Shown: positions 2,134-54,309 of the stretch, piece by piece
Numbering within the stretch: position 1 is the stretch's first letter
Layout of the letters: each line of letters starts with the position of its first letter
Source of the DNA: Shigella phage ChubbyThor
Sequence record: OL615013
Length of the DNA: 64,000 nt
Direction: 5' to 3' (one strand)
Notes under the pieces: model-generated
What the model was told of the DNA's origin: nothing
Database searches by the model: none
What the model saw: the letters and a program-made list of their open reading frames with translations, nothing else
Made by a program: the position numbers and the translations under genes

Positions 2134-2156
2134 GTGAATCTCCTGTTGTTATCACG

Positions 2157-2174
2157 AAGCCCCTGAAGGGGCTT
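2157..2174 (-). terminator. hairpin between the two tailspike genes (attenuator/terminator-like)
   Basis: AAGCCCC-TGAA-GGGGCTT; no strong T-tract. Confidence 0.3.
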
Positions 2175-2214
2175 TATCGATAGAAGTTGCTAGACATCTC
2201 TAGACAGAATCGGA

Positions 2215-5139
2215 TCAATTTGACATCTGTTTCCAGTCTGAGGAGGTTAAGCCATGTGATTTCCACCAGGAACTCGCACCTGCACTCCAGACTTCCTGTC
2301 CAATAAAACGGGGGGTTACTGTAGCCACAGGCGTAGGACCAGAGACGACAACATACCCATATTTTGCTGGGCCAGTAGCATTGTTCAGTATCGTGTCTTT
2401 GGTAATTCCAGTCGCACCATTAAACCATTCTAGGTCTGTTCCGCTCGCCCCACTAATAAACTCAGGTGAAAACTTAGTGAAACTACAGGCTGCATTTACA
2501 CGTGCGCCGTTGTATGCATTATATCCACTAGCCTGGGTATTAGTCCAACGGCCACCGATCACACTGCCGCCACTACAGCTCAGGAACCAAGCTGCGTATC
2601 TTGCGAACCCTTCCACGTTCACATTAATCAGTTCAAAACCGGAAGCACCATTACACTGAATACCATCGTTGTTTGGGACACCACTCGCGATTTGTGGGTT
2701 AGCAGCATATCCAGTTAAGTTAGCGCCATTAATGTAAATACCAGTACTTGTGTTAGTGCTGAAGAAGATACCGACACCAGAACAGTTCTGAACGCTGAGG
2801 TTGCTAATACGGATACCACGAGCATAATCGAAACTTAAAGCTCGCTCTGCCGCTGAAACAGACCGATAACCAAATCCAATATCACGCAGACGTATATTGC
2901 TCATAGTGATATTGGATGGGTTCATACCCGGTGTCACAACTTCAAAACCTTCAAAGGTGATTCCGTTACCACAGTTGGTGGCTACAACATTATCCACAAC
3001 AATGTCGGCAACGTAGCGTTTGAAACCCATAGCCCCTTGAGCGCAGTCGCGCAACACCAGGTTGGACATTGCGCAGTTACGAGTACCGCCTGCCACACTT
3101 GCAGATAAGTAGATCCCAAGGTCGCGCGTGTTTTCTACATAAAGACCATTCACCCAGCAGTTTTTGGTAGTCGCAAACATCAGACCTGAGTCGGGGGCAT
3201 TCACGAGCTTACAGTTGGTGATAGAGCATCGATTCCCACCGAACGTTAAGATGTCGGCTACAGCATACAATGTGTTGCTTGCTTGGTTTCCGTCTATATA
3301 CAAATCTATTAAATGGGTATCCTGTGCATCAAAGTTCTCGACAAGATAATATGCTTTGGTCGCATCATTACAAACATTATCTGCGAATTTCAACCAGCCG
3401 CCTGCACCCTTAACAATAGTTTTAGAACCAATATGCAGATGCGTGAACACCCAAGGGTCTCCATTTTTGTTTTTGGGTGTGATGCCAATTACGCAATGTC
3501 CGGAAACACTATCCGCATAATCCAATGCTGCCTGTAATGTTTCCTGATCTGTCATTGCGCCGAACATGAAAGCGCGAACATCAATATAGTCTTCAAATTG
3601 AATTTCAAGTTGATTACCGTCCAGGCGGTCAATTAATACCACACCGTCGGCAACTTTACCTGTGTTGGGAACAACTGAATATTTGTTGTAAATACCAGAA
3701 AGAGTTTTGCTGGCCACAATACGCCCGAGCACGGTCTGGTTCGAGTTTAGCGAGTTTCGGTCTCCTAATTCCACAGCAACGCCGCCAATAGACCCAACCC
3801 CCACATTAGACTCTAATAATTCTTGGAAAACGACCAAGCTTTCAGAAGTCGGCAAGAGCAAAGAAACAACAACATTCCCTGGTGCATATGTCAGAGTGCT
3901 CCCACTCACAGATACAACAGAAGAACCTGTCGGGATACCAGAAGGTAAGCTCCAAATCTTTTGCGCCACCACATCATAGATAACAGTCTTTCCGTCCAAT
4001 TTGGTGACAGTATCTGATGACAGAATAACCTGAGAATTTGGAACGTTCATAGAACGCGCCACTTCGTTTGGTGTACGGTCGATCTGGTTGTACAGGGTTG
4101 GGTCGCCATTAATGACGACAACAACTTCATCACCAGCTTCGAGTTCGTCGGCCAGCGTGATGATCTTCGTAACGGAGTCATAAGTGAAGCCCAGACCTTT
4201 TTGCTGGCGGGATCCATCGATAAAGATCTCAGAAACATCTTCGGCATCCACGTCCAACTCGATCTCGGTTTCACCACCCGCAGCTGATCCACTATTGTAG
4301 ATCCAAGTGATAACCGTGCCGCCGCCGGAACCACCGGAGCCATTGCCCAACTGGATCGGGACGTATTGGATGACCTGCAGCTCGGAACCTGATGGGATTG
4401 ATGGACTGAAGTCCACATTGTAACCGTTCAGGGAATACTTTGATTCCAGCAGGCGTTTGCCGTCAACATACACGTCAACGATAGAAGGTTGTGTAGTCAG
4501 CGTTACCTGAGCAGTGTCTGCCGAAACGGTTTCCGTGAAGATGGTACGACTGTAAACGCGCCCCTGACCAAGGCCGACACCAGCAGTAACAATCCAACCA
4601 CGCGCGTCTCCAGACCAGGTAAAGGTCGCAGATACGCTGTCGGTGGAGAGCGTCATAGGCTCTACAGAGCCGTACATTGGGCGACCATTTGGGTCAATGG
4701 TCAGGGGATACAGGGAGAACTTTCCATACAAGTCACAGACTGTAACAGAATCACCCACACGCGTAGGGGAAGGGAACACCACCGTAGAGACGCCTGTGGA
4801 GTTGTCTACCAGATAGCCTCGCCCTTCAGTGAGCGTTGCCGTAGAGGCATGCGGAAGGGCTTCCCAGCGGATACCACCGCCACCCAGCGGCAACCATCCA
4901 CCATTTTCGTAGAAGCCCTCAAATTCGTCGGAGTCGGCATTGTAGCGAACAGAAGACGGGAGACCTGCGTCAGCATTACCCTCAGGTAAAGTCAGGACAG
5001 CATCTGGTCCATGCTCAATCGTACCCGTGTTGAGGATACCAGCCAAAGTAGACTGCTCTTCAGCCACCAGACCGAGAGGGAAAACAGGCTGTGTTGGTTT
5101 ATTAGCCATTTCAAATACCCCTAAATGTGTTCGTTTCAT
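2215..5139 (-). CDS. tailspike / tail fibre protein with N-terminal anchor module, Gly-rich linker and beta-helix domain
   Basis: 974-aa ORF; GSGGSGGG linker; internal segment (TKLDGKTVIYDVVAQKIWSLPSGIP...) homologous to N-terminus of ORF 1..2133; likely true start is the second in-frame ATG at 5109 (SD AGGGG 8 nt upstream, late-promoter-like box at 5141-5153). Confidence 0.55.
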   Translation of the reverse strand: MKRTHLGVFEMANKPTQPVFPLGLVAEEQSTLAGILNTGTIEHGPDAVLTLPEGNADAGLPSSVRYNADSDEFEGFYENGGWLPLGGGGIRWEALPHASTATLTEGRGYLVDNSTGVSTVVFPSPTRVGDSVTVCDLYGKFSLYPLTIDPNGRPMYGSVEPMTLSTDSVSATFTWSGDARGWIVTAGVGLGQGRVYSRTIFTETVSADTAQVTLTTQPSIVDVYVDGKRLLESKYSLNGYNVDFSPSIPSGSELQVIQYVPIQLGNGSGGSGGGTVITWIYNSGSAAGGETEIELDVDAEDVSEIFIDGSRQQKGLGFTYDSVTKIITLADELEAGDEVVVVINGDPTLYNQIDRTPNEVARSMNVPNSQVILSSDTVTKLDGKTVIYDVVAQKIWSLPSGIPTGSSVVSVSGSTLTYAPGNVVVSLLLPTSESLVVFQELLESNVGVGSIGGVAVELGDRNSLNSNQTVLGRIVASKTLSGIYNKYSVVPNTGKVADGVVLIDRLDGNQLEIQFEDYIDVRAFMFGAMTDQETLQAALDYADSVSGHCVIGITPKNKNGDPWVFTHLHIGSKTIVKGAGGWLKFADNVCNDATKAYYLVENFDAQDTHLIDLYIDGNQASNTLYAVADILTFGGNRCSITNCKLVNAPDSGLMFATTKNCWVNGLYVENTRDLGIYLSASVAGGTRNCAMSNLVLRDCAQGAMGFKRYVADIVVDNVVATNCGNGITFEGFEVVTPGMNPSNITMSNIRLRDIGFGYRSVSAAERALSFDYARGIRISNLSVQNCSGVGIFFSTNTSTGIYINGANLTGYAANPQIASGVPNNDGIQCNGASGFELINVNVEGFARYAAWFLSCSGGSVIGGRWTNTQASGYNAYNGARVNAACSFTKFSPEFISGASGTDLEWFNGATGITKDTILNNATGPAKYGYVVVSGPTPVATVTPRFIGQEVWSAGASSWWKSHGLTSSDWKQMSN

Positions 5140-5153
5140 CTAGGGGTATTTAG
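5113..5153 (-). promoter_or_regulatory. late-promoter-like box CTAAATACCCC with SD-sequestering inverted repeat upstream of tailspike gene
   Basis: Minus-strand CTAAATACCCCTA = plus 5141-5153; 11-bp inverted repeat plus 5113-5123 / 5141-5151; 3' arm contains AGGGG SD for ATG 5109. Confidence 0.4.
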
Positions 5154-5161
5154 TTTTCACT

Positions 5162-6373
5162 TTAGAAAGAAGCGACTAGATTGTAGTCAACGGAGCAAGC
5201 AGTCGTCGTGTTCGCATTTGTTATCGTCAAACGAAGTTTTGAAGACACTACAGAACCCGAGAATGTCACCGTACCGGAAGTGGACTTCTGAATCAACAAC
5301 TCCGACTTGATAGTCCCGTCACGGGTGATCGTCACACGATACGTATCCACGACGTTGCCTGTACCCCATTGTGCACTGATCAACACCTGACAAAGGTTCA
5401 CCAAATCGAAGTCGGGCAACGCAGAGTTCCCCGAAGCAGAGACAGTGATGCCGCTTGGGTTGGTCTTCCCGATCTTCACACGGGCAGCAATGTCGGCGTC
5501 CAGGCTTGTCATTTTGGCGTTGTAGGTCGATGTGTTGACCTTTCCAGACAACGTGGTATTGATCGTGCCGATATCACTCTGAATGCCGCTGATGGAACTG
5601 TCCAACGCCGCCATCTTCGTGTTATACGTACTGACGTTCACTTTGTTGTTCGTCAGATCTAGTATACTGGTGTCCAGGCTAGACATCTTGGAGTTGTAAG
5701 TCGACGTGTTGACCTTCGCAGCCAGAGTGGTGTTGACAGTGTTGAACTGAGACTGGATATCCAACATGTCAGCATCGTAATCGACCACTTTCAGATACGC
5801 ATTGAAGCGCGTGTCATTGAAAATGGAAGTCACAAACGCAGATGTGTCGTACTTGACAGTGTCGGTTCCACTCACCAGTAACATGGTAGTTGGCACACCA
5901 GTACCAGAGTAAGTGACCAGATTTGTGCCGTCGAAAGTGAGTTTGTTGTAGCCGCCAGATAACAACTCGATTTTCAGACCAGAGTTAACCCCGGCAGTGT
6001 CTTCACTCACGCCGTGCTTGCGCAGCATAGACAGATTGACGCCATCAGTGGAATCAACTGGCTCATCTGCGATGGTAAGTTTCTTCCCCGTAGGGATACT
6101 GACACCAGCATTGGCTCGGATTTCTGCGGCAAAAGTCTTCCGCCCGTTGATAGTTTGTTCCCCACCGTCGGTGCGAATCACCTTATTATCCAACGTGTCG
6201 TAGATGTCATCCACAGAACGCTTCAGTTCATACGTCAGATGAGCTGAAGGAGGAAACAACGGATCATCAACAGCGAAATCGTTGATAACATCGTTCTTGC
6301 TTACTTTGTCGTCAACAGAACCAAGAATTGCGTCAATCTGCTGACCTGTATATTGACTCAGGAAATCGGCCAT
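5162..6373 (-). CDS. tail fibre protein with internal sequence repeats
   Basis: 403-aa ORF; three copies of motif VN(T/V)STYNxKMxxLD; Ser/Thr/Asn-rich; sits between baseplate genes and tailspikes. Confidence 0.5.
   Translation of the reverse strand: MADFLSQYTGQQIDAILGSVDDKVSKNDVINDFAVDDPLFPPSAHLTYELKRSVDDIYDTLDNKVIRTDGGEQTINGRKTFAAEIRANAGVSIPTGKKLTIADEPVDSTDGVNLSMLRKHGVSEDTAGVNSGLKIELLSGGYNKLTFDGTNLVTYSGTGVPTTMLLVSGTDTVKYDTSAFVTSIFNDTRFNAYLKVVDYDADMLDIQSQFNTVNTTLAAKVNTSTYNSKMSSLDTSILDLTNNKVNVSTYNTKMAALDSSISGIQSDIGTINTTLSGKVNTSTYNAKMTSLDADIAARVKIGKTNPSGITVSASGNSALPDFDLVNLCQVLISAQWGTGNVVDTYRVTITRDGTIKSELLIQKSTSGTVTFSGSVVSSKLRLTITNANTTTACSVDYNLVASF
5500..5760 (-). repeat. three imperfect direct repeats inside tail-fibre gene
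   Basis: Three related DNA segments starting near 5507, 5612 and 5685, encoding VN(T/V)STYNxKMxxLD. Confidence 0.5.
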
Positions 6374-7230: not shown

Positions 7231-8992
7231 AACGCACCTCCGGCTCCACAGTTACAGCACCGATGCGAAGCACCTGGTTTTGTGTGGCCTGAATGTTCTG
7301 GTCAAGACCGTCTGGAGACACGATGATAGTCACTCCCTCGGTGTTGTAGTTGGATACTATGATGCGCTGGAGTTCAACAACGCCATTCACATAATCAACC
7401 GTTCCAACAGCTTGTACCAGATATTCCTTGGTCGTGTCTGCTGTACTCACCTTGTACATATTCAGGACACCACTGACATCGCGCATGTAGTAAGTGAAGT
7501 CGACCTCGGCCGGAAGCGGCTTAAACCCACTGATACGCACAGAACCAGATGCAATCGAGCGCCCATAATCGAACGTGAAGCTGTCTAGTACCCCATAGTC
7601 TGGCTTGAAGTGGCGCTTGTACTTCACGGAAGCGATGTTTGACGCTATCGATCTGTCCATGTCGGTGATGGCCGACTGCAACTGCTCTTTATCGAACAGT
7701 TCGTCGAATCCTTCCAGGTTCCCCAAGCCCCAGTTGACAACACCGTTCTTTACGACTGTCTTCAACTGCTCTTCGGTGTAGGCCGTGGAAGTCGGATCCC
7801 AGAACACGCGGGTGGTGACATCAACATAAGTCAGTTCAGCGTCGACAATCTTGGGTGTGATCGTACCCACATTGTACTTGTCCAAAGTCGCCACGATATC
7901 TGCCTTCTCAGCGTCGGACAGCGTCTCACCAACAGAAGGTACTACAGCAATGTAAACGTATCCAGAGTCGGGCGGAGATAGCGTGTCTCCACCATATGCT
8001 TTGGCGCGGGAGACGTTGGAGAACAGGCGCTCGGTCAACACAGCATAATCGACTTCGGCTACCGCCGCACCCTCAGCCTGATAAGCCAGCGGAGCAAGGC
8101 GCTTGATGTCTTCAATGCTCTCTGGGTCTGTACCGCCAGAAGAACGTTCTGACACCAGTTCAACATCTACAAGGTTGAAGCCCCCGATGGAAGACGCAGA
8201 GGACAAGGCAGTGATGTCATTGCCGTCTGCACCAGAGGTCTCCAGATACTGAAGGTACACGACGTTCCCGTCTTCTACTCGCTTGCAGATATAACCGTCG
8301 CCGAATTCAAACGTGTACATCCCGTCCAACCCCAGCTCAACGAAGTAGAGTTGTGCATACTGGCTCAAATCGAACGGGCTGACATATCGTGAGAAGGTAG
8401 ACCGCACGTCGGAGGTCTCAGATTCCTGCACCTGCACCACCATGTGGTTGATGTCCACGGAAGAAGACGGGATCACATAGGTAGAGATCGCGCTGCCTTC
8501 CACGTCATAGGACTTGTACAGCCAGTTGCCCTGCACGAGTTTGATGTTCTCGAACTTGTAAGAGCCGTCTACAAGAGAGGCGCTCACAGGTTGGTCAACC
8601 GTGAAGTTGTAGGATTTGCCATCCTTCGCTCCAATGAACATCGCCCGGCGGTCCATTACAATCGTATCTGGAGCCGTGCTGGCGTCATATGGAGTGACTG
8701 TGACGTTTGCGTACAGGAACGCCGCCTGGTAGTTGTGAGGGGTGTAAGACAAGAACCCCGCCGCCAGACCAACATTAGAACGCTGTTGAGCAGAGTGAAG
8801 ATGGCTTTCGCCATTCAGCATGTTCTGCATGAACCCGATAGAGTTGGCATCCGAGGCCAAGATACGCACGATTGCACTGAGACCAGAACCTTCAAAGTCA
8901 TAATCCTTGAAAGTTGGATCAGCTTTCATGCGCTTCTTGATAAGATACTCGAAAGCCCTGACATCGAGTGAAGGAACTGTTTGTGTGGCCAT
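7211..8992 (-). CDS. baseplate wedge protein (Baseplate J / T4 gp6-like)
   Basis: ORF track 7211..9007 (598 aa); most plausible start is ATG at 8992 preceded by GGAGA SD; size and position upstream of tail fibre genes; late-promoter-like box upstream. Confidence 0.4.
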   Translation of the reverse strand: MATQTVPSLDVRAFEYLIKKRMKADPTFKDYDFEGSGLSAIVRILASDANSIGFMQNMLNGESHLHSAQQRSNVGLAAGFLSYTPHNYQAAFLYANVTVTPYDASTAPDTIVMDRRAMFIGAKDGKSYNFTVDQPVSASLVDGSYKFENIKLVQGNWLYKSYDVEGSAISTYVIPSSSVDINHMVVQVQESETSDVRSTFSRYVSPFDLSQYAQLYFVELGLDGMYTFEFGDGYICKRVEDGNVVYLQYLETSGADGNDITALSSASSIGGFNLVDVELVSERSSGGTDPESIEDIKRLAPLAYQAEGAAVAEVDYAVLTERLFSNVSRAKAYGGDTLSPPDSGYVYIAVVPSVGETLSDAEKADIVATLDKYNVGTITPKIVDAELTYVDVTTRVFWDPTSTAYTEEQLKTVVKNGVVNWGLGNLEGFDELFDKEQLQSAITDMDRSIASNIASVKYKRHFKPDYGVLDSFTFDYGRSIASGSVRISGFKPLPAEVDFTYYMRDVSGVLNMYKVSTADTTKEYLVQAVGTVDYVNGVVELQRIIVSNYNTEGVTIIVSPDGLDQNIQATQNQVLRIGAVTVEPEVRYVQRSQ

Positions 8993-8995
8993 GTT

Positions 8996-9039
8996 TATCT
9001 CCATCACCTGAACTTGAATATGGTGTTGGAGATATTTAG
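8996..9039 (-). promoter_or_regulatory. late-promoter-like box CTAAATAtCtcc with SD-sequestering inverted repeat upstream of baseplate gene
   Basis: Minus-strand CTAAATA = plus 9033-9039; 7-bp inverted repeat plus 8996-9002 / 9028-9034; 3' arm is the GGAGATA SD of ATG 8992. Confidence 0.4.
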
Positions 9040-9341
9040 TGGGATGGGATTGAAACTTCCTCGCGCGTTATTTTATTATACTATCACTCGCTTCACTGCG
9101 TTCCGCTCGGATAACACCGCCTTGACAGGCAGTCCCATTCCACAGCCATGGAGGCTGCTTTTCGTTGTTCGTTAACACTCACAACTCAAAGGGCACAGCG
9201 ATACGATACAGTCTCTGAGTGGTGTAGAAAAGTAGTTTTTGCCTATTAATAAACCGCGCTCCTATTCGTTGGCCTTTAATTCAATAACACCTTCACCAAT
9301 ATAATAGTGCGGTCAATTAACCATATATTAAGGAACCTCTC

Positions 9342-16260: not shown

Positions 16261-16291
16261 CTAAATACCCCATACAACCCGTGTGGGGTAT
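16261..16291 (+). promoter_or_regulatory. late-promoter-like box CTAAATACCCC whose tail forms a hairpin with the SD of a 31-codon uORF
   Basis: CTAAATACCCC at 16261-16271; 8-bp stem ATACCCCA (16265-16272) / TGGGGTAT (16284-16291); small ORF ATG at 16294. Confidence 0.4.
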
Positions 16292-16360
16292 CTATGAAAC
16301 CTTTCTTGAATATTTCCGTGATATCGTCCTGTACAAACCCGGCCTGGCAGTGCGGGAAGC

Positions 16361-16371
16361 CTAAATACCCC
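16361..16371 (+). promoter_or_regulatory. late-promoter-like box CTAAATACCCC upstream of acidic-protein gene
   Basis: Exact second copy of CTAAATACCCCATA, 29 nt upstream of ATG 16400; GAGGA SD between. Confidence 0.45.
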
Positions 16372-16399
16372 ATATGGCTAACCCACTGAGGAACCCAAC

Positions 16400-16858
16400 A
16401 TGCCAACCTCCAAATTGTTTGAATCAGAATACACCAATGATATCCCCGTATGGACTGGTGTTCAAGACGGCATCACGATTGAGCTGTTTGATCGTGAAGA
16501 GACGGGCGCGGAAGAGATCTATGCAGGCGTTGAAGGCACTGATGTTGTTCGCGCCGCTGTAGCCCTTGCCACCTTCCTGGAAGATGCGCCGATTGATGGT
16601 GTGCCGTTCGAGGCGCACGTAGATCCCGAGGATCCAACGTCTATCATCATTACAGTGAATGGGGTGCCATACACTTCATACAGCATTGAGACGGACGAAG
16701 AGGGCAGCGGAGCGCTGTATATTGCTACTGACCTGCAGCTGGAAGACGATGAGATGGATTATCTGATTCAGAATGGGGTACTGCCGCCGTTCACAGATGA
16801 AGACCTGGACACGGAACTGGCCGCCGTCGGTGACGATGACGACTTCTGGGAAGAATAA
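16400..16858 (+). CDS. strongly acidic protein (about 40 Asp/Glu in 152 aa); candidate DNA-mimic / host-takeover protein
   Basis: ORF with GAGGA SD; composition by direct count; poly-Asp C-terminus GDDDDFWEE. Confidence 0.55.
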   Translation: MPTSKLFESEYTNDIPVWTGVQDGITIELFDREETGAEEIYAGVEGTDVVRAAVALATFLEDAPIDGVPFEAHVDPEDPTSIIITVNGVPYTSYSIETDEEGSGALYIATDLQLEDDEMDYLIQNGVLPPFTDEDLDTELAAVGDDDDFWEE

Positions 16859-26280: not shown

Positions 26281-26312
26281 TATAAATATCCTCGCCTATA
26301 AAGTGAGGATAT
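26281..26312 (+). promoter_or_regulatory. T4-type late-promoter box TATAAATA whose tail forms an SD-sequestering hairpin
   Basis: TATAAATA at 26281-26288; 8-bp stem ATATCCTC (26286-26293) / GAGGATAT (26305-26312); ATG of small ORF at 26317. Confidence 0.4.
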
Positions 26313-26316
26313 TATC

Positions 26317-26484
26317 ATGTTACAAGATCTGTTGGTCTACGCACTTCCGGGTGTGGTTGTTGGATTCATCGCAGGTGCTCTGGTCTTCCGCAAACACGCG
26401 CAAGACGGTGAAGTGATTGTTCAGAAGGGTAAAGACATCCTGGAACAAATCGAAGCCAAACTGGATGAGCTGAAGAAAAAGTAA
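26317..26484 (+). CDS. small protein (55 aa) with N-terminal hydrophobic helix
   Basis: ATG 26317 with GAGGA SD; below ORF-track cut-off. Confidence 0.3.
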   Translation: MLQDLLVYALPGVVVGFIAGALVFRKHAQDGEVIVQKGKDILEQIEAKLDELKKK

Positions 26485-50728: not shown

Positions 50729-51339
50729 GGCAATAGAAGTCCATCATCCCGCTCCGTTGGGGCGGGTTTAATCTCCTTCCGCATCTGTTCCTTCAGCACC
50801 CTGACGCGTTCGGCATGTCGGCGGTCTTGCATCTCCATATCCCGTTTCTTCTTCGACTTCAGCTCAAACTGTTTGCGGACATCCGGATCTTCACCTGGAA
50901 CAAGATGCTCTTCAGTCCAGATAATGAACTTCCAGTTCTTCTTGGCACACAGTTCACGGGTAGCCTCCCACTTGGCAGAGTTGACCAACCAGGTTCGCAT
51001 CGCATTGTTGAATGTCGACTCCTTCATGTTCGGAGTCTTCTTCGGCTGCTTGATCTGGTCTTTGGGCTTGATCTCAATGAGGGTGACCTGCAGTTCCTCT
51101 TGCCCTTCACGGCGCGTCCAGACCTTGAGGTCCATGAAGTAACGATGGGTGCGCCCGTCGACTGGGGAAATGTAAGGGATTACAGTCTCCTCGCTCGACC
51201 ACTTCACTATCGCGGAGTTCATATCACAGAACTTGAAAGCCACCAACTCCAGCGAAGAGCGGAAGATGATGTTGTTCACATTCCCCTGATACTTCTTGGG
51301 ATTAACCGGGGTGTATTTCCCCTGAAGATAGTTGCTCAT
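50725..51339 (-). CDS. PD-(D/E)xK-fold protein, possibly head-completion (gp4-like) protein
   Basis: 204 aa; FMDLKVW ... LIEIKP D...ExK arrangement; divergent from structural operon. Confidence 0.35.
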   Translation of the reverse strand: MSNYLQGKYTPVNPKKYQGNVNNIIFRSSLELVAFKFCDMNSAIVKWSSEETVIPYISPVDGRTHRYFMDLKVWTRREGQEELQVTLIEIKPKDQIKQPKKTPNMKESTFNNAMRTWLVNSAKWEATRELCAKKNWKFIIWTEEHLVPGEDPDVRKQFELKSKKKRDMEMQDRRHAERVRVLKEQMRKEIKPAPTERDDGLLLP

Positions 51340-51348
51340 AATTTAGTC

Positions 51349-51380
51349 CTAAATAGCCATAACACTCTATCTATTTAAGG
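51349..51380 (+). promoter_or_regulatory. late-promoter-like box CTAAATAG with downstream inverted copy overlapping the SD
   Basis: CTAAATAG 51349-51356; inverted copy CTATTTAAGG 51371-51380; ATG 51390. Confidence 0.35.
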
Positions 51381-51389
51381 GCTGAGACC

Positions 51390-52358
51390 ATGTCCGACTT
51401 CAAAAAGACAATCGATAAGATCAAAGTTCTGAACACGAAGGGATTGTCCCAGGCTCAGAAGCAATTGACTTATCCCCTGGACGTCACTGGGGGTAAGACC
51501 CTGGGCCACTATGTCCTATTCAACATCAACCGCATCTCCGGTTCATCTTACGGTGACACGGCTACCCAGACTGTCGAGAACCCAATACAGAACCCTCTGG
51601 GGAATACTCCTGTGGTCTATGGGTCCAAGTCTGGTTCCATCACCAAATATGCATGGGCGCGTCACGTTCGCTCGAACGAATCCATCGTCCTGTGTATGCC
51701 AGAGTCCATTACAACCAACTATGGCGTTGGCTGGAATGGCAGTGAGCTGGGGCTGGCTGGAATGGGGGCACAGTTCCTTTCCCGCGCCGCCCAAGACATG
51801 ACTCAGTTTAAACTGGGTGATGCATTGAACGTCGGGAAGGAGATGGGGCGATTCGCTGCCACCAAGGCCATTCAGTCGGCCTCTGAGTCTATTCCGTTCC
51901 TACCGACCATTAACGCCCATGACACCCTTGAGTTGTTCACAGGCACCATGACCAACCCGTATGTGGAGATGATCTTCCAGGGCGTCCGCAACCGTGAGAT
52001 TCCATTTACATTCAAATTCACGCCGCGATCTCAGAAGGAAGCCAAGATGGTCCGTGAGATCATCCGTCTGTTCAAGATGCACATGTACCCTGAGTACAAG
52101 TACAACAAGAACTCCAGTGCCTTCTATCTGCATCCATCGACCTTTGATATCACGTTCATGGTCAATGGTGAGCGTAACCAATGGCTCCACCGCATCTCCA
52201 CCTGCGTGCTGTCCAACATGTTCGTCAACGAGACGCCGGACAGTTCATACGCGGTTCACAAAGATGATGGTATCGTGTCCACGCAGGTTGACATGACCTT
52301 CATCGAACTGGAGCCTCTGCATAAAGGGCGCTTTGAAACCGAAGGCGATAGCTTCTAA
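51390..52358 (+). CDS. tail tube / baseplate-tube junction protein (gp48/gp54-like)
   Basis: 322 aa; first gene of plus-strand late operon; assignment by size/order/composition. Confidence 0.35.
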   Translation: MSDFKKTIDKIKVLNTKGLSQAQKQLTYPLDVTGGKTLGHYVLFNINRISGSSYGDTATQTVENPIQNPLGNTPVVYGSKSGSITKYAWARHVRSNESIVLCMPESITTNYGVGWNGSELGLAGMGAQFLSRAAQDMTQFKLGDALNVGKEMGRFAATKAIQSASESIPFLPTINAHDTLELFTGTMTNPYVEMIFQGVRNREIPFTFKFTPRSQKEAKMVREIIRLFKMHMYPEYKYNKNSSAFYLHPSTFDITFMVNGERNQWLHRISTCVLSNMFVNETPDSSYAVHKDDGIVSTQVDMTFIELEPLHKGRFETEGDSF

Positions 52359-52924: not shown

Positions 52925-54309
52925 TCGAAAACAGAGAGACCCAAGACGGTATTGTAACACCGTCAACAACATTTGACCTGAAGTATATGGCGATCCTCCC
53001 TCATACACCCCAGGGCGGAACACCAACGCCATACGACCTGACGGCGTTGTTTGAGGAGTTCAACGTCTTCCAGGATCTGGGTCTTGAAGGGAAGTCATCT
53101 CCATCGCTTACAGCCAATGTCTTGATAAAAGAGGGGTGGGACATTCTGGACACAATGCCTATCTTGGGTGGTGAAGAAGTTGTGGTGTCATTCAAGAGTC
53201 CGGCGGCCTCGGATTACACCACTCTCTCCCTGCGCGTGGCGCGGGTAGGGCGCGTGGCTGATGAGTCCAACAGCTCGTCCAAGAAAGCATTCTGGTTGCA
53301 CATGGTGACTACCGATGCCTACAAGGACAGCATGATCCGCTGCTCCCTCGGTCTTGACGGTTCGTACTCTGACATGGCAAAGGTAATCTTCAACCAGCTG
53401 GAGTCGCGCACCAAGTTCGAAGACATCGACCCGTCATATGGCATTCAAGAGCGATTCGCCACCCCGCTCTGGCCTGTGCTGCGATCTATTGATTATATGG
53501 CGAGCCGTTCTTATGACGAATTGTTCATGCCATTCGTCTTCTATGAAGACTTCAATGGCTATCACTTCAAGAGCCTGACGACGTTGTTCAACCAGGGCAG
53601 CCAGTCATTGACGGCAGAAGAGAAGCAGGAACTGGCTCAGCAGAACAAGTTATTCCGTGATCCTCAGGACGCGCCGCTCATGCAGGATAACAACTTCAAC
53701 TCTGAGCGTTTCATGCGCACTATCATTAAGGCAGAGAAGAAGCTGGCGCGTGACCAGTTCATGGCAAACTACCGTGATGTCCTGGCGGTGAATGAGCGTG
53801 TATACGACTTTGAGACCAAGACAGTCACCCCTACACAGCGCATCTACACTGAGTGGTTTGCAGAGACGGCTCACCTTGACCCATTCCCGATGTTCTCAGA
53901 TGAATTCGATCGTCAGAACGTCCGTTATATTGAAGCCCAACCGGATGGAGCGGAGCAGATTGATTATGCTCGTCGTGTTATCAACTTCAGTCTTGCCAGT
54001 ACTGTGATGCGCGTGTTGCTCGTTGGTGATAACCGCCTGAACGTCGGCCAGGTGTTCTACATCGAAGACCAGTCCAACCGTCCTAAGAAGAACGAAAACC
54101 TGGCAGAGTTAAGTAAGCTATCGACAGGCCACTATATCGTGACCAAAGTACGTCACAAGATTTCCCGCCTGACCAAAGATTATCAGTGCATCGCTGAGAT
54201 TGCCAAGGACAGTTTGCTGGAGCAGGTGCTTCCACCTCAGACCAATCAGACAACTGCTTCCACCACTACTCCTCAGGCGATTGAGAAAGGCCAAGCACAG
54301 AAGGTTTAA
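52921..54309 (+). CDS. baseplate hub-like structural protein
   Basis: 462-aa ORF in structural operon. Confidence 0.35.
   Translation: MIENRETQDGIVTPSTTFDLKYMAILPHTPQGGTPTPYDLTALFEEFNVFQDLGLEGKSSPSLTANVLIKEGWDILDTMPILGGEEVVVSFKSPAASDYTTLSLRVARVGRVADESNSSSKKAFWLHMVTTDAYKDSMIRCSLGLDGSYSDMAKVIFNQLESRTKFEDIDPSYGIQERFATPLWPVLRSIDYMASRSYDELFMPFVFYEDFNGYHFKSLTTLFNQGSQSLTAEEKQELAQQNKLFRDPQDAPLMQDNNFNSERFMRTIIKAEKKLARDQFMANYRDVLAVNERVYDFETKTVTPTQRIYTEWFAETAHLDPFPMFSDEFDRQNVRYIEAQPDGAEQIDYARRVINFSLASTVMRVLLVGDNRLNVGQVFYIEDQSNRPKKNENLAELSKLSTGHYIVTKVRHKISRLTKDYQCIAEIAKDSLLEQVLPPQTNQTTASTTTPQAIEKGQAQKV

Follow-up and report, generated by a model that had tools for sequence, protein, structure and literature searches.

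Introduction

The hairpin at gene e of bacteriophage T4 cuts lysozyme synthesis from long transcripts ~100-fold, as determined by experiment (PMC3014915), and control by a promoter placed inside a hairpin has also been described at T4 soc, 49, I-TevI/II/III and segB and at mobE of phage Aeh1 (PMC3014915; PMC2988022). T4-type late promoters have a -10-like element and need no -35 element. Within the open complex formed by T4 gp55, positions -12, -9 and -8 hold flipped-out adenines. In the PeSL cassettes of T4-type phages the promoters are early sigma-70 promoters, with a terminator stem-loop lying upstream of them. In the ViI-like phages the CTAAATAcCcc motif was reportedly first proposed in a 2012 paper in Archives of Virology; the literature that we found on this motif lists or annotates it only, with no description of pairing with a downstream Shine–Dalgarno (SD) sequence.

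Here we examine the tailspike junction in a 64,000-nucleotide stretch (hereafter the window) of an Ag3-like Ackermannviridae phage. We assign a probability of roughly 0.6 to the reading that a T4-type late promoter is built into a hairpin masking the ribosome-binding site (RBS) of the tailspike gene, which is a known T4 device, here in a new phage family.

Results

The junction and its surroundings comprise the following features:

2215..5109, minus: tailspike gene, TSP4 homologue, 964 aa, from ATG 5109-5107 to TGA 2217-2215
5112..5127, minus: 3' arm of the hairpin, perfect part 5123-5113
5118..5122, minus: Shine–Dalgarno AGGGG, fully paired in the long RNA
5128..5136, minus: hairpin loop AAACGAACA, 9 nt
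5137..5152, minus: 5' arm of the hairpin, perfect Watson–Crick part 5151-5141
5139-5137, minus: in-frame upstream ATG, which adds 10 codons (MKRTHLGVFE)
5141, minus: predicted transcription start, an A, 6 nt past the last A of the box as in T4 geometry
5146-5142, minus: CCCCT, the candidate anti-SD, occupying -5 to -1
5153-5143, minus: CTAAATACCCC box, an exact match to the ViI-like CTAAATAcCcc motif
5154-5147, minus: -10-like element ACTAAATA, aligned to T4 late TATAAATA at -13 to -6
5162..6373, minus: upstream co-directional ORF, 403 aa, with TAA at 5164-5162

Start codon of the tailspike gene

The first 249 residues of the tailspike match the N-terminal structures of CBA120 TSP4 (7RFV, 7REJ and 7RFO) from residue 1. 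The chains of these PDB entries open with MANKPTQP and derive from recombinant constructs, so that their N-terminus shows only what the depositors assumed. The upstream ATG at 5139 is followed two codons on by a stop (ATG ACA TGA or ATG AAA TGA) in most relatives, namely LIMEstone1, EspM4VN, RC-2014, SW16-7, pSal-SNUABM-02, P46FS4 and ten Kuttervirus-type loci, and in Taipeivirus GACG stands in its place, which gives the start at 5109 good support. At the position equivalent to 5109 EspM4VN reads GTG, and variation at third codon positions sets in directly past ATG 5109. A preliminary description made from the letters alone had placed the start at 5109, and on this comparative evidence we regard that start as strongly supported.

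The equivalent start is annotated in Ag3, LIMEstone1, EspM4VN, RC-2014 and SW16-7, and the long form in Gloob only. The 10-codon extension is free of stops in the window and some relatives, but it is without an SD, and 2 nt would separate its AUG from the predicted 5' end of the RNA. The proteomic supplement for EspM4VN contains no N-terminal peptide for gene 101; since the expected tryptic peptide is ~54 residues long, its absence is uninformative. A conserved upstream mini-ORF was considered and rejected, as its stops fall at differing places, it has no AUG in Taipeivirus and in Serratia phage 3M its AUG stands in another frame.

A hairpin that encloses the Shine–Dalgarno sequence

The sequence AAATACCCCTA (5151-5141, minus) has its exact reverse complement in TAGGGGTATTT (5123-5113), which confirms the 11-bp inverted repeat of the preliminary description as perfect, and the AGGGG that it had assigned to the 3' arm can be read directly on the minus strand, at 5122-5118 and separated from ATG 5109-5107 by the 8-nt spacer TATTTGAA. 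Folded with RNAfold, the repeat extends to a stem of 16 bp with two G·U pairs (5152-5137 / 5127-5112), the 3' strand of which holds AGGGG together with UAUUU, the five bases with which the spacer begins; the stem also buries the upstream in-frame AUG (5139-5137). The long RNA folds at -21.0 kcal/mol (z = -8.1), as well as which none of 200 shuffles folded, whereas an RNA from 5141 gives values between just -0.9 and -3.2 kcal/mol (z = +0.3). The window contains only five inverted repeats that are perfect over arms of 11 bp or more with a loop of 3–30 nt, against 0.38 ± 0.58 in dinucleotide shuffles. Rfam covariance models gave no match to the 4800-5500 region at E-values up to 1.

A putative late promoter within the hairpin

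Copies of the box with at most one mismatch occur three times in the window, against 0.48 expected. An orthologous copy at EspM4VN 65377-65387 is listed in the paper on that phage at the same junction, and the LIMEstone1 record labels the orthologous box 'putative late promoter'; in LIMEstone1 the box sits before the tailspike, gp6 and endolysin genes and genes for confirmed virion proteins. The promoter box that the preliminary description had noted ahead of the tailspike thus matches the motif of the family, while its placement in the 5' arm needs correcting: box and perfect arm overlap by 9 nt, but the box is not entirely inside the arm.

The flipped-out adenines place T4 TATAAATA at -13 to -6. 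Aligned to it, ACTAAATA is identical at 6 of 8 positions and retains A at -9 and A at -8; at -12 it has C where T4 has a pocket-bound A, which counts against a promoter of T4 type. With the box on T4 numbering, +1 would fall on A5141 and the anti-SD on -5 to -1. The genes for gp55, gp33 and gp45 lie outside the window; Ag3, the DNA of which is 97 per cent identical, has Orf122, Orf076 and Orf165, and the annotation of LIMEstone1 includes gp33, gp55 and gp45. The box is accordingly treated here as a putative T4-type late promoter, probably dependent on the late sigma factor gp55. Our literature search found no transcript start or promoter activity mapped for any Ackermannviridae phage.

In the proposed mechanism, ACTAAATA and the CCCCT that follows it at -5 to -1 would form the 5' strand of the 16-bp RNA hairpin. 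RNA made from this promoter would begin at about A5141, inside the hairpin, and would be without the anti-SD strand; its SD would be open to translation from AUG 5109. RNA that comes in from the baseplate genes upstream would contain both strands and fold at -21 kcal/mol, and because this fold would bury the SD and the spurious AUG at 5139, the tailspike would be translated poorly or not at all. Because the predicted start is downstream of the anti-SD arm, the hairpin would mask the SD only in RNAs from upstream, a main consequence that the preliminary description leaves unstated, and probably only RNAs started at the tailspike promoter are translated. Any read-through RNA at the junction would come from the unit of the 5162..6373 ORF, a homologue of the confirmed virion protein ORF161 of LIMEstone1. 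The 5162..6373 ORF ends 9 nt ahead of the stem, and no terminator is called.

Comparison with T4 gene e and with terminators

As a control, the same analysis was applied to T4 gene e (UAAAUACCUUCUA...UAGGAGGUAUU-AUG), the long RNA of which folds at -14.0 kcal/mol and the two late RNAs of which fold at -2.8 or 0 kcal/mol. The two sites have in common that AAUA of the box pairs with UAUU just past the SD, that the pyrimidines following the box are paired with the SD, and that the predicted start lies inside the 5' strand, such that the promoter's own RNA would be open and a longer one closed. They differ in the length and strength of the stem (16 bp and -21 kcal/mol at the tailspike against ~11 bp and -14 kcal/mol at gene e), in the SD (GGGG against GGAGG) and in the box (CTAAATA against TATAAATA). 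The T4 gene e design was shown by experiment, whereas promoter activity, transcription start and translational effect at the tailspike site are what we infer from sequence and folding. The setting differs as well: e, soc and 49 of T4 are kept off early and turned on late, while the genes upstream of the tailspike (gp6, gp7 and ORF161, the baseplate operon) are themselves late, and the early-versus-late rationale is therefore not obviously applicable.

It is unlikely, in our judgment, that the hairpin is mainly a terminator or 3'-end stabilizer of the upstream baseplate operon that overlaps the next promoter and RBS by chance, in a compact cassette of terminator and promoter. Like intrinsic terminators, it has a GC-rich core flanked by AAAUA/UAUUU, the base of the stem resembling an A-tract and U-tract, and in the plus-strand reading TTTTCACTTT comes after the hairpin. 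In LIMEstone1, UUUUCUU follows two sister elements, one at 54282 ahead of the endolysin gene and one at 92917, both of which the depositors annotated as factor-independent terminators. On the coding strand, however, the full stem is followed by GAAAUGGCU, which is no U tract, and the tail past the core stem, UAUUUGAA, holds 4 U in 8. The loop of 9 nt is likewise unlike that of intrinsic terminators, and neither the terminator scan nor the LIMEstone1 annotators called the tailspike hairpin. Among nine hairpin-type sites a U-rich tail is present at only two or three, whereas the SD lies in the 3' arm at every one, ending 2–8 nt ahead of the start codon, and at the gp6 site there is no upstream gene to terminate.

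Conservation among relatives

The hairpin is present in five genera (Agtrevirus, Limestonevirus, Kuttervirus, Taipeivirus and Miltonvirus) and is retained even where the N-terminus of the protein has fallen to 47 per cent identity. Among close relatives substitutions are confined to the loop, which is unrelated in Taipeivirus and Miltonvirus, and the flanks change across genera as well. GGGGTAT is invariant, and the remaining spacer bases vary. At the orthologous junction of LIMEstone1, 12 of 12 bases of the SD region are paired in the long RNA. Arms were compared straight from the folds, as MAFFT misplaces the 3' arm where loop lengths differ. Because the core 10 bp are invariant in orthologues, covariation among these comes from peripheral pairs alone: a G·U is replaced by G-C in the stem of Taipeivirus, and one base pair is gone from both arms in Serratia phage 3M; both changes leave the structure intact. 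In its conservation, its specificity and a geometry like that of the T4 gene e hairpin, the structure bears out the anti-SD hairpin of the preliminary description.

Each arm is also under separate constraint, one as promoter and the other as SD, and this, like the invariance of the core, counts against the preferred reading.

The closeness of the upstream stop to the hairpin brings in translational coupling, by which the SD of a polycistronic RNA would become accessible only once the 5' arm is melted by a ribosome completing the ORF upstream. SD-masking stems opened by terminating ribosomes are an established mechanism, and the stop lies 9 nt before the stem here and, in Kuttervirus-type genomes, just 2 nt ahead of the box. 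The distance from stop to stem nevertheless differs between genera, a terminating ribosome in the window would get no further than the first base pair of the 16-bp stem, and coupling is impossible at the gp6 site and wherever the box lies well past the upstream stop. We consider coupling improbable, more so than termination.

Own and swapped pairs of box and ribosome-binding site

The same arrangement is seen at further boxes, both in the window and in LIMEstone1. In the window, the boxes at 5152 and 16262 pair with their own SD through ACCCC/GGGGU, that at 9038 through AUCUCC/GGAGAU and that at 26283 through AUCCUC/GAGGAU. When 15-nt box segments were exchanged among 32 LIMEstone1 sites, own pairs had a mean stabilization of -5.04 kcal/mol and swapped pairs one of -2.80 kcal/mol; the own-pair value was reached in 0 of 5000 permutations in LIMEstone1 and in 113 of 5000 in the window. 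For each box, the best partner is its own RBS.

These values bear on the alternative that we rate lowest of all, which is that the pairing is functionless and arises from composition, a pyrimidine stretch facing a purine-rich SD, or that the true start is 5139. Bases rich in C and T do follow many boxes, and even swapped pairs gain a mean of -2.8 kcal/mol; the longer reading frame, for its part, is annotated in one GenBank record. Composition does not account for own pairs winning in all 5000 LIMEstone1 permutations, nor for pairing that reaches the spacer UAUUU and the loop-proximal GAUG/CAUU, which have no role as SD or promoter, and the start at 5139 meets the stops in most relatives described above.

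Discussion

The reading that we prefer, a late promoter within an RBS-masking hairpin, treats the repeat as a property of the RNA. A role at the level of DNA, as the site of a dimeric regulator, an opposite-strand promoter or a recombination joint for tailspike modules, seems to us very improbable, if slightly less so than a functionless pairing. Conservation is far higher in the 57-nt junction than in the coding sequence that flanks it on both sides, tailspike exchange between these phages is known, and a joint in DNA would be comparable to the PeSL cassettes of T4-type phages. The boxes at 51350 and 51377 in the window moreover form a palindrome, because two divergent promoters overlap there. 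The arm sequences, however, differ by site and covary with the SD of each gene, so that no single DNA-binding protein explains them, and the change from G·U to G-C and the loss of one pair from both arms are signatures of an RNA type. A second promoter on the plus strand was rejected, the complementary arm TCAAATACCCC having two mismatches to the box and no gene lying in that direction. With the PeSLs the tailspike cassette shares the form of a short, conserved promoter-plus-stem-loop recurring between genes in a variable genome region; unlike theirs, its promoter is of late type and lies inside the stem, which includes the RBS.

On the preferred reading, that of a promoter inside the masking hairpin, a classic control device of T4 would be extended to a distant T4-related phage family, and the recurrence of the design suggests that it is used more widely in the Ackermannviridae than in T4, including between two late genes. 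The gp6 site has a hairpin-type box between divergent genes, a place at which read-through should be slight; as the design stands there without an upstream gene, a general rule for late genes in the Ackermannviridae is possible, although the gp6 case might instead indicate a role for the repeat in DNA or in the open complex. The idea that hairpins occur only where read-through is possible is not supported: they are found at 7 of 18 co-directional and 1 of 10 divergent sites, a difference that is not significant (p = 0.12), and the gp6 promoter is a counter-example. We advance only tentatively, and with more doubt than belief, that a quarter to a third of Ackermannviridae late promoters are self-insulating cassettes, in which the start of the RNA would license translation of many late genes and read-through or pervasive RNA would be silent, with the five bases that lead from the -10-like box to +1 tuned to the SD of each gene.

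For annotation, the comparative evidence would settle the start of the TSP4-type tailspike at 5109 rather than at the longest-ORF position 5139 used by at least one GenBank relative, and the arrangement offers a rule by which starts and promoters can be positioned in the genomes of Ackermannviridae, which are used in biocontrol and tailspike engineering. Swaps of tailspike modules made without the intact 45-nt cassette could alter expression. In LIMEstone1 the genes preceded by hairpin-type sites encode the endolysin, a RuvC resolvase, an intron homing endonuclease and virion proteins, a set that echoes that of T4.

A proposed promoter/anti-SD hairpin before the tailspike gene

The likeliest reading of the element in front of the large tailspike gene is a T4-type late promoter lying within a hairpin that masks the Shine–Dalgarno (SD) sequence. 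This arrangement, proposed in the preliminary description as a promoter/anti-SD hairpin, is supported by the layout of T4 gene e, by conservation, by recurrence at other boxes and by the specificity of each promoter for its own pairing partner. The 1.2-kb stretch around the hairpin shares 97% identity with Shigella phage Ag3 and 84–89% with Dickeya Limestonevirus phages, which makes the window an Agtrevirus-type member of the Ackermannviridae (ViI-like, T4-related phages). On the minus strand the genes run from a gp6 baseplate homologue through a gp7-like gene and a 403-aa virion protein to a large ORF, the product of which is a homologue of CBA120 tailspike protein 4 (TSP4): residues 1–249 from ATG 5109 match the solved TSP4 N-terminal domains (7RFV, 7REJ, 7RFO; E ~1e-116), and the match begins at residue 1 when counted from this ATG. 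The coordinates first proposed for the hairpin were all verified on the minus strand.

Features around the tailspike start
5162–6373, minus: 403-aa virion protein
2215–5139, minus: large ORF
5153–5143, minus: putative late-promoter box, CTAAATACCCC
5151–5141, minus: 5' arm, AAATACCCCTA, exact complement of TAGGGGTATTT
5139, minus: in-frame ATG
5123–5113, minus: 3' arm, TAGGGGTATTT
5122–5118, minus: SD AGGGG, separated from ATG 5109 by 8 nt

RNAfold gives a 16-bp stem including two G·U pairs (5152–5137 with 5127–5112) and a 9-nt loop, at −21.0 kcal/mol (z = −8.1; 0 of 200 shuffles fold equally well). The window contains 5 perfect hairpins (arms ≥11 bp, loops 3–30 nt) against 0.38 expected, and 3 copies of the box against 0.48 expected; the promoter-box hairpin is a real feature and not a product of chance. 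The other four perfect hairpins are centred near 2894 (within tailspike coding sequence), 10428, 29320 (AAAGGGGATAG...CTATCCCCTTTTT, resembling an intrinsic terminator) and 59874. No box is present where the TSP4 gene gives way to the next tailspike gene, which starts at 2133. This junction (2134–2214, minus strand) holds a GC-rich hairpin, AAGCCCC-TTCA-GGGGCTT (2174–2157), and a canonical AGGAG SD; the LIMEstone1 counterpart does have the box-hairpin cassette.

The box as a putative late promoter

Both the box motif and the orthologous promoter are already known, the former from the literature and the latter from annotation. CTAAATAcCcc was described as a regulatory motif of ViI-like phages in the EspM4VN paper, with listed positions that include this orthologous junction, and TAAATA at this junction is annotated in the LIMEstone1 record as one of 33 putative late promoters. 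In addition, gp55, gp33 and gp45 are encoded in the family, and virion and lysis genes stand downstream of boxes. The CBA120 authors stated in 2011 that the late promoter of this phage family had not been identified, and no later mapping of an Ackermannviridae late promoter was found in the literature searched; calling the box a promoter is accordingly reasonable but unproven.

Cryo-EM of the T4 gp55 open complex shows pockets occupied by the flipped-out adenines −12, −9 and −8, which places TATAAATA at −13 to −6. Alignment of ACTAAATA (5154–5147) to the T4 element gives a predicted +1 at A5141 and places CCCCT, complementary to the SD at every base, at −5 to −1. A late RNA, transcribed from the box's own promoter at 5141, would keep no more of the 5' arm than its last five bases and is predicted to leave the SD unpaired, with a folding energy of −0.9 kcal/mol. 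A start at 5139 would, as had been argued, have no leader, since that AUG would lie 2 nt from the predicted 5' end.

T4 gene e, processed identically, reads UAAAUACCUUCUA...UAGGAGGUAUU-AUG, and folds at −14.0 kcal/mol in the long RNA (the transcript from upstream carrying both arms) and at −2.8 and 0 in its two late-promoter RNAs. At both sites the UAUU following the SD pairs with AAUA in the box, and the SD itself with the pyrimidines downstream of the box. The T4 hairpin lowers lysozyme synthesis from long transcripts about 100-fold (review, PMC3014915), and the same design is reviewed for soc, 49, I-TevI/II/III, segB and Aeh1 mobE (PMC3014915, PMC2988022). The arms at the LIMEstone1 endolysin gene, AAAUACCUUCGCA/UGCGGAGGUAUUU (record 54246–54285, minus strand), nearly equal those of the T4 lysozyme gene although the phages are only distantly related; this stem was annotated as a terminator by the depositors.

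Conservation and the start codon

The hairpin is found in five genera. In close relatives every substitution sits in the loop, and in Taipeivirus the loop is unrelated and a G-C pair replaces the window's G·U. Serratia phage 3M, in which the N-terminal 250 residues are 47% identical, has ATACCCCTAATG/CATTAGGGGTAT, with one pair gone from both arms. All copies share GGGGTAT and differ in the rest of the spacer (TTGAA, TACAA, TTTCAA, CAAA); classical covariation is confined to the edges because the core 10 bp of the stem show no variation.

In an alignment of ten relatives the junction is better conserved than the coding sequence flanking it on either side. The upstream ATG (equivalent to 5139) runs into a stop, reading ATG ACA TGA in LIMEstone1, EspM4VN, RC-2014, SW16-7, pSal-SNUABM-02 and ten Kuttervirus-type loci and ATG AAA TGA in P46FS4, the protein of which is 99% identical to the window's; in Taipeivirus it is replaced by GACG. 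In EspM4VN the codon corresponding to 5109 is GTG. Differences downstream of the 5109 ATG mostly affect the third base of codons (GCT/GCC, AAT/AAC, CCT/CCG), as expected of translated sequence, and most records annotate this start. Together the stops, the third-position variation and the annotations bear out the start first proposed, and 5109 is close to certain. A single base is all that keeps the 10-codon extension open in the window. Only Shigella phage Gloob (OL615011.1) has its TSP4 homologue annotated from the equivalent of 5139, probably 10 codons too long.

Recurrence at other boxes

Other boxes in the window repeat the design, the arms changing in step with the SD of the gene concerned.

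Further hairpin boxes in the window
9038, minus: AUAUCUCC/GGAGAUA, before the gp6 homologue
16262, plus: AUACCCCAUAC/GUGUGGGGUAU, hairpin of −18.3 kcal/mol
26283, plus: AAUAUCCUCGC/GUGAGGAUAUU, hairpin-type box

At the gp6 site (8992–9041, minus strand) UCUCC after the TAAATA box at 9038 pairs with the GGAGAUA that closely precedes ATG 8992; folding energies are −16.1 kcal/mol for the long RNA and −6.9 for the predicted late RNA. The ORF list starts this gene at GTG 9007, and LIMEstone1 is annotated with the ATG. At 26283–26320 (plus strand) TAAATAUCCUCGC pairs with GUGAGGAUAUU, 4 nt upstream of ATG 26317 (long RNA −14.0 kcal/mol, late RNA −1.7); its LIMEstone1 orthologue, at 147905, stands upstream of ORF191, whose product is predicted to be a membrane and coiled-coil protein. 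Downstream of the 16262 box (16261–16400, plus strand) lies only a 31-aa ORF (16294–16389), and a second box at 16361 (plus), without a hairpin, precedes a 152-aa acidic ORF (16400–16858). LIMEstone1 has two full 152-aa paralogues there, ORF173 and ORF174, each a confirmed virion protein, so only a remnant of the first copy seems to survive in the present phage. LIMEstone1 genes behind the same design include the next tailspike, endolysin, RuvC resolvase, an intron homing endonuclease and several virion genes.

When 15-nt box segments were exchanged among promoters, own pairs in LIMEstone1 averaged −5.04 kcal/mol of stabilisation and swapped pairs −2.80; the own-pair value was reached by 0 of 5000 permutations there and by 113 of 5000 in the window. 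Own pairs thus outdo swapped ones, and the pairing is specific to each promoter and its own ribosome-binding site. No description of the SD pairing, or of its recurrence across Ackermannviridae late promoters, was found in the literature searched; the promoter-in-hairpin design is possibly a general rule of late-gene expression in the family.

Possible other roles of the hairpin

The early-off/late-on logic of T4 e fails to explain the device at the tailspike, because the genes upstream of this hairpin are late themselves. The gp6 box carries a hairpin yet sits in the intergenic region between divergent genes, an argument against read-through silencing as the sole function, and enrichment of strong hairpins in co-directional contexts is not significant (7/18 versus 1/10, p = 0.12). 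Some sites may combine SD masking with a terminator or 3'-stabiliser role, as two sister elements have U-rich tails and annotated terminators, whereas the tail at the tailspike site is GAAAUGG and the terminator scan makes no call. Read on the plus strand, the 5112–5152 hairpin is directly followed by TTTTCACTTT (5153–5162) and resembles an intrinsic terminator that would act on antisense transcription; this tail derives from AAAAC, the A-run before the box, which is kept in Aglimvirinae and Kuttervirus and not in Serratia phage 3M.

TAAATA is under-represented in the window (20 observed, 31 expected) and in LIMEstone1 (54 and 79), consistent with avoidance of stray late-promoter boxes. Between divergent genes at 51339–51392, TAAATAG boxes at 51350 (plus) and 51377 (minus) overlap as a palindrome, and this inverted repeat is a matter of paired promoters, not of SD masking.
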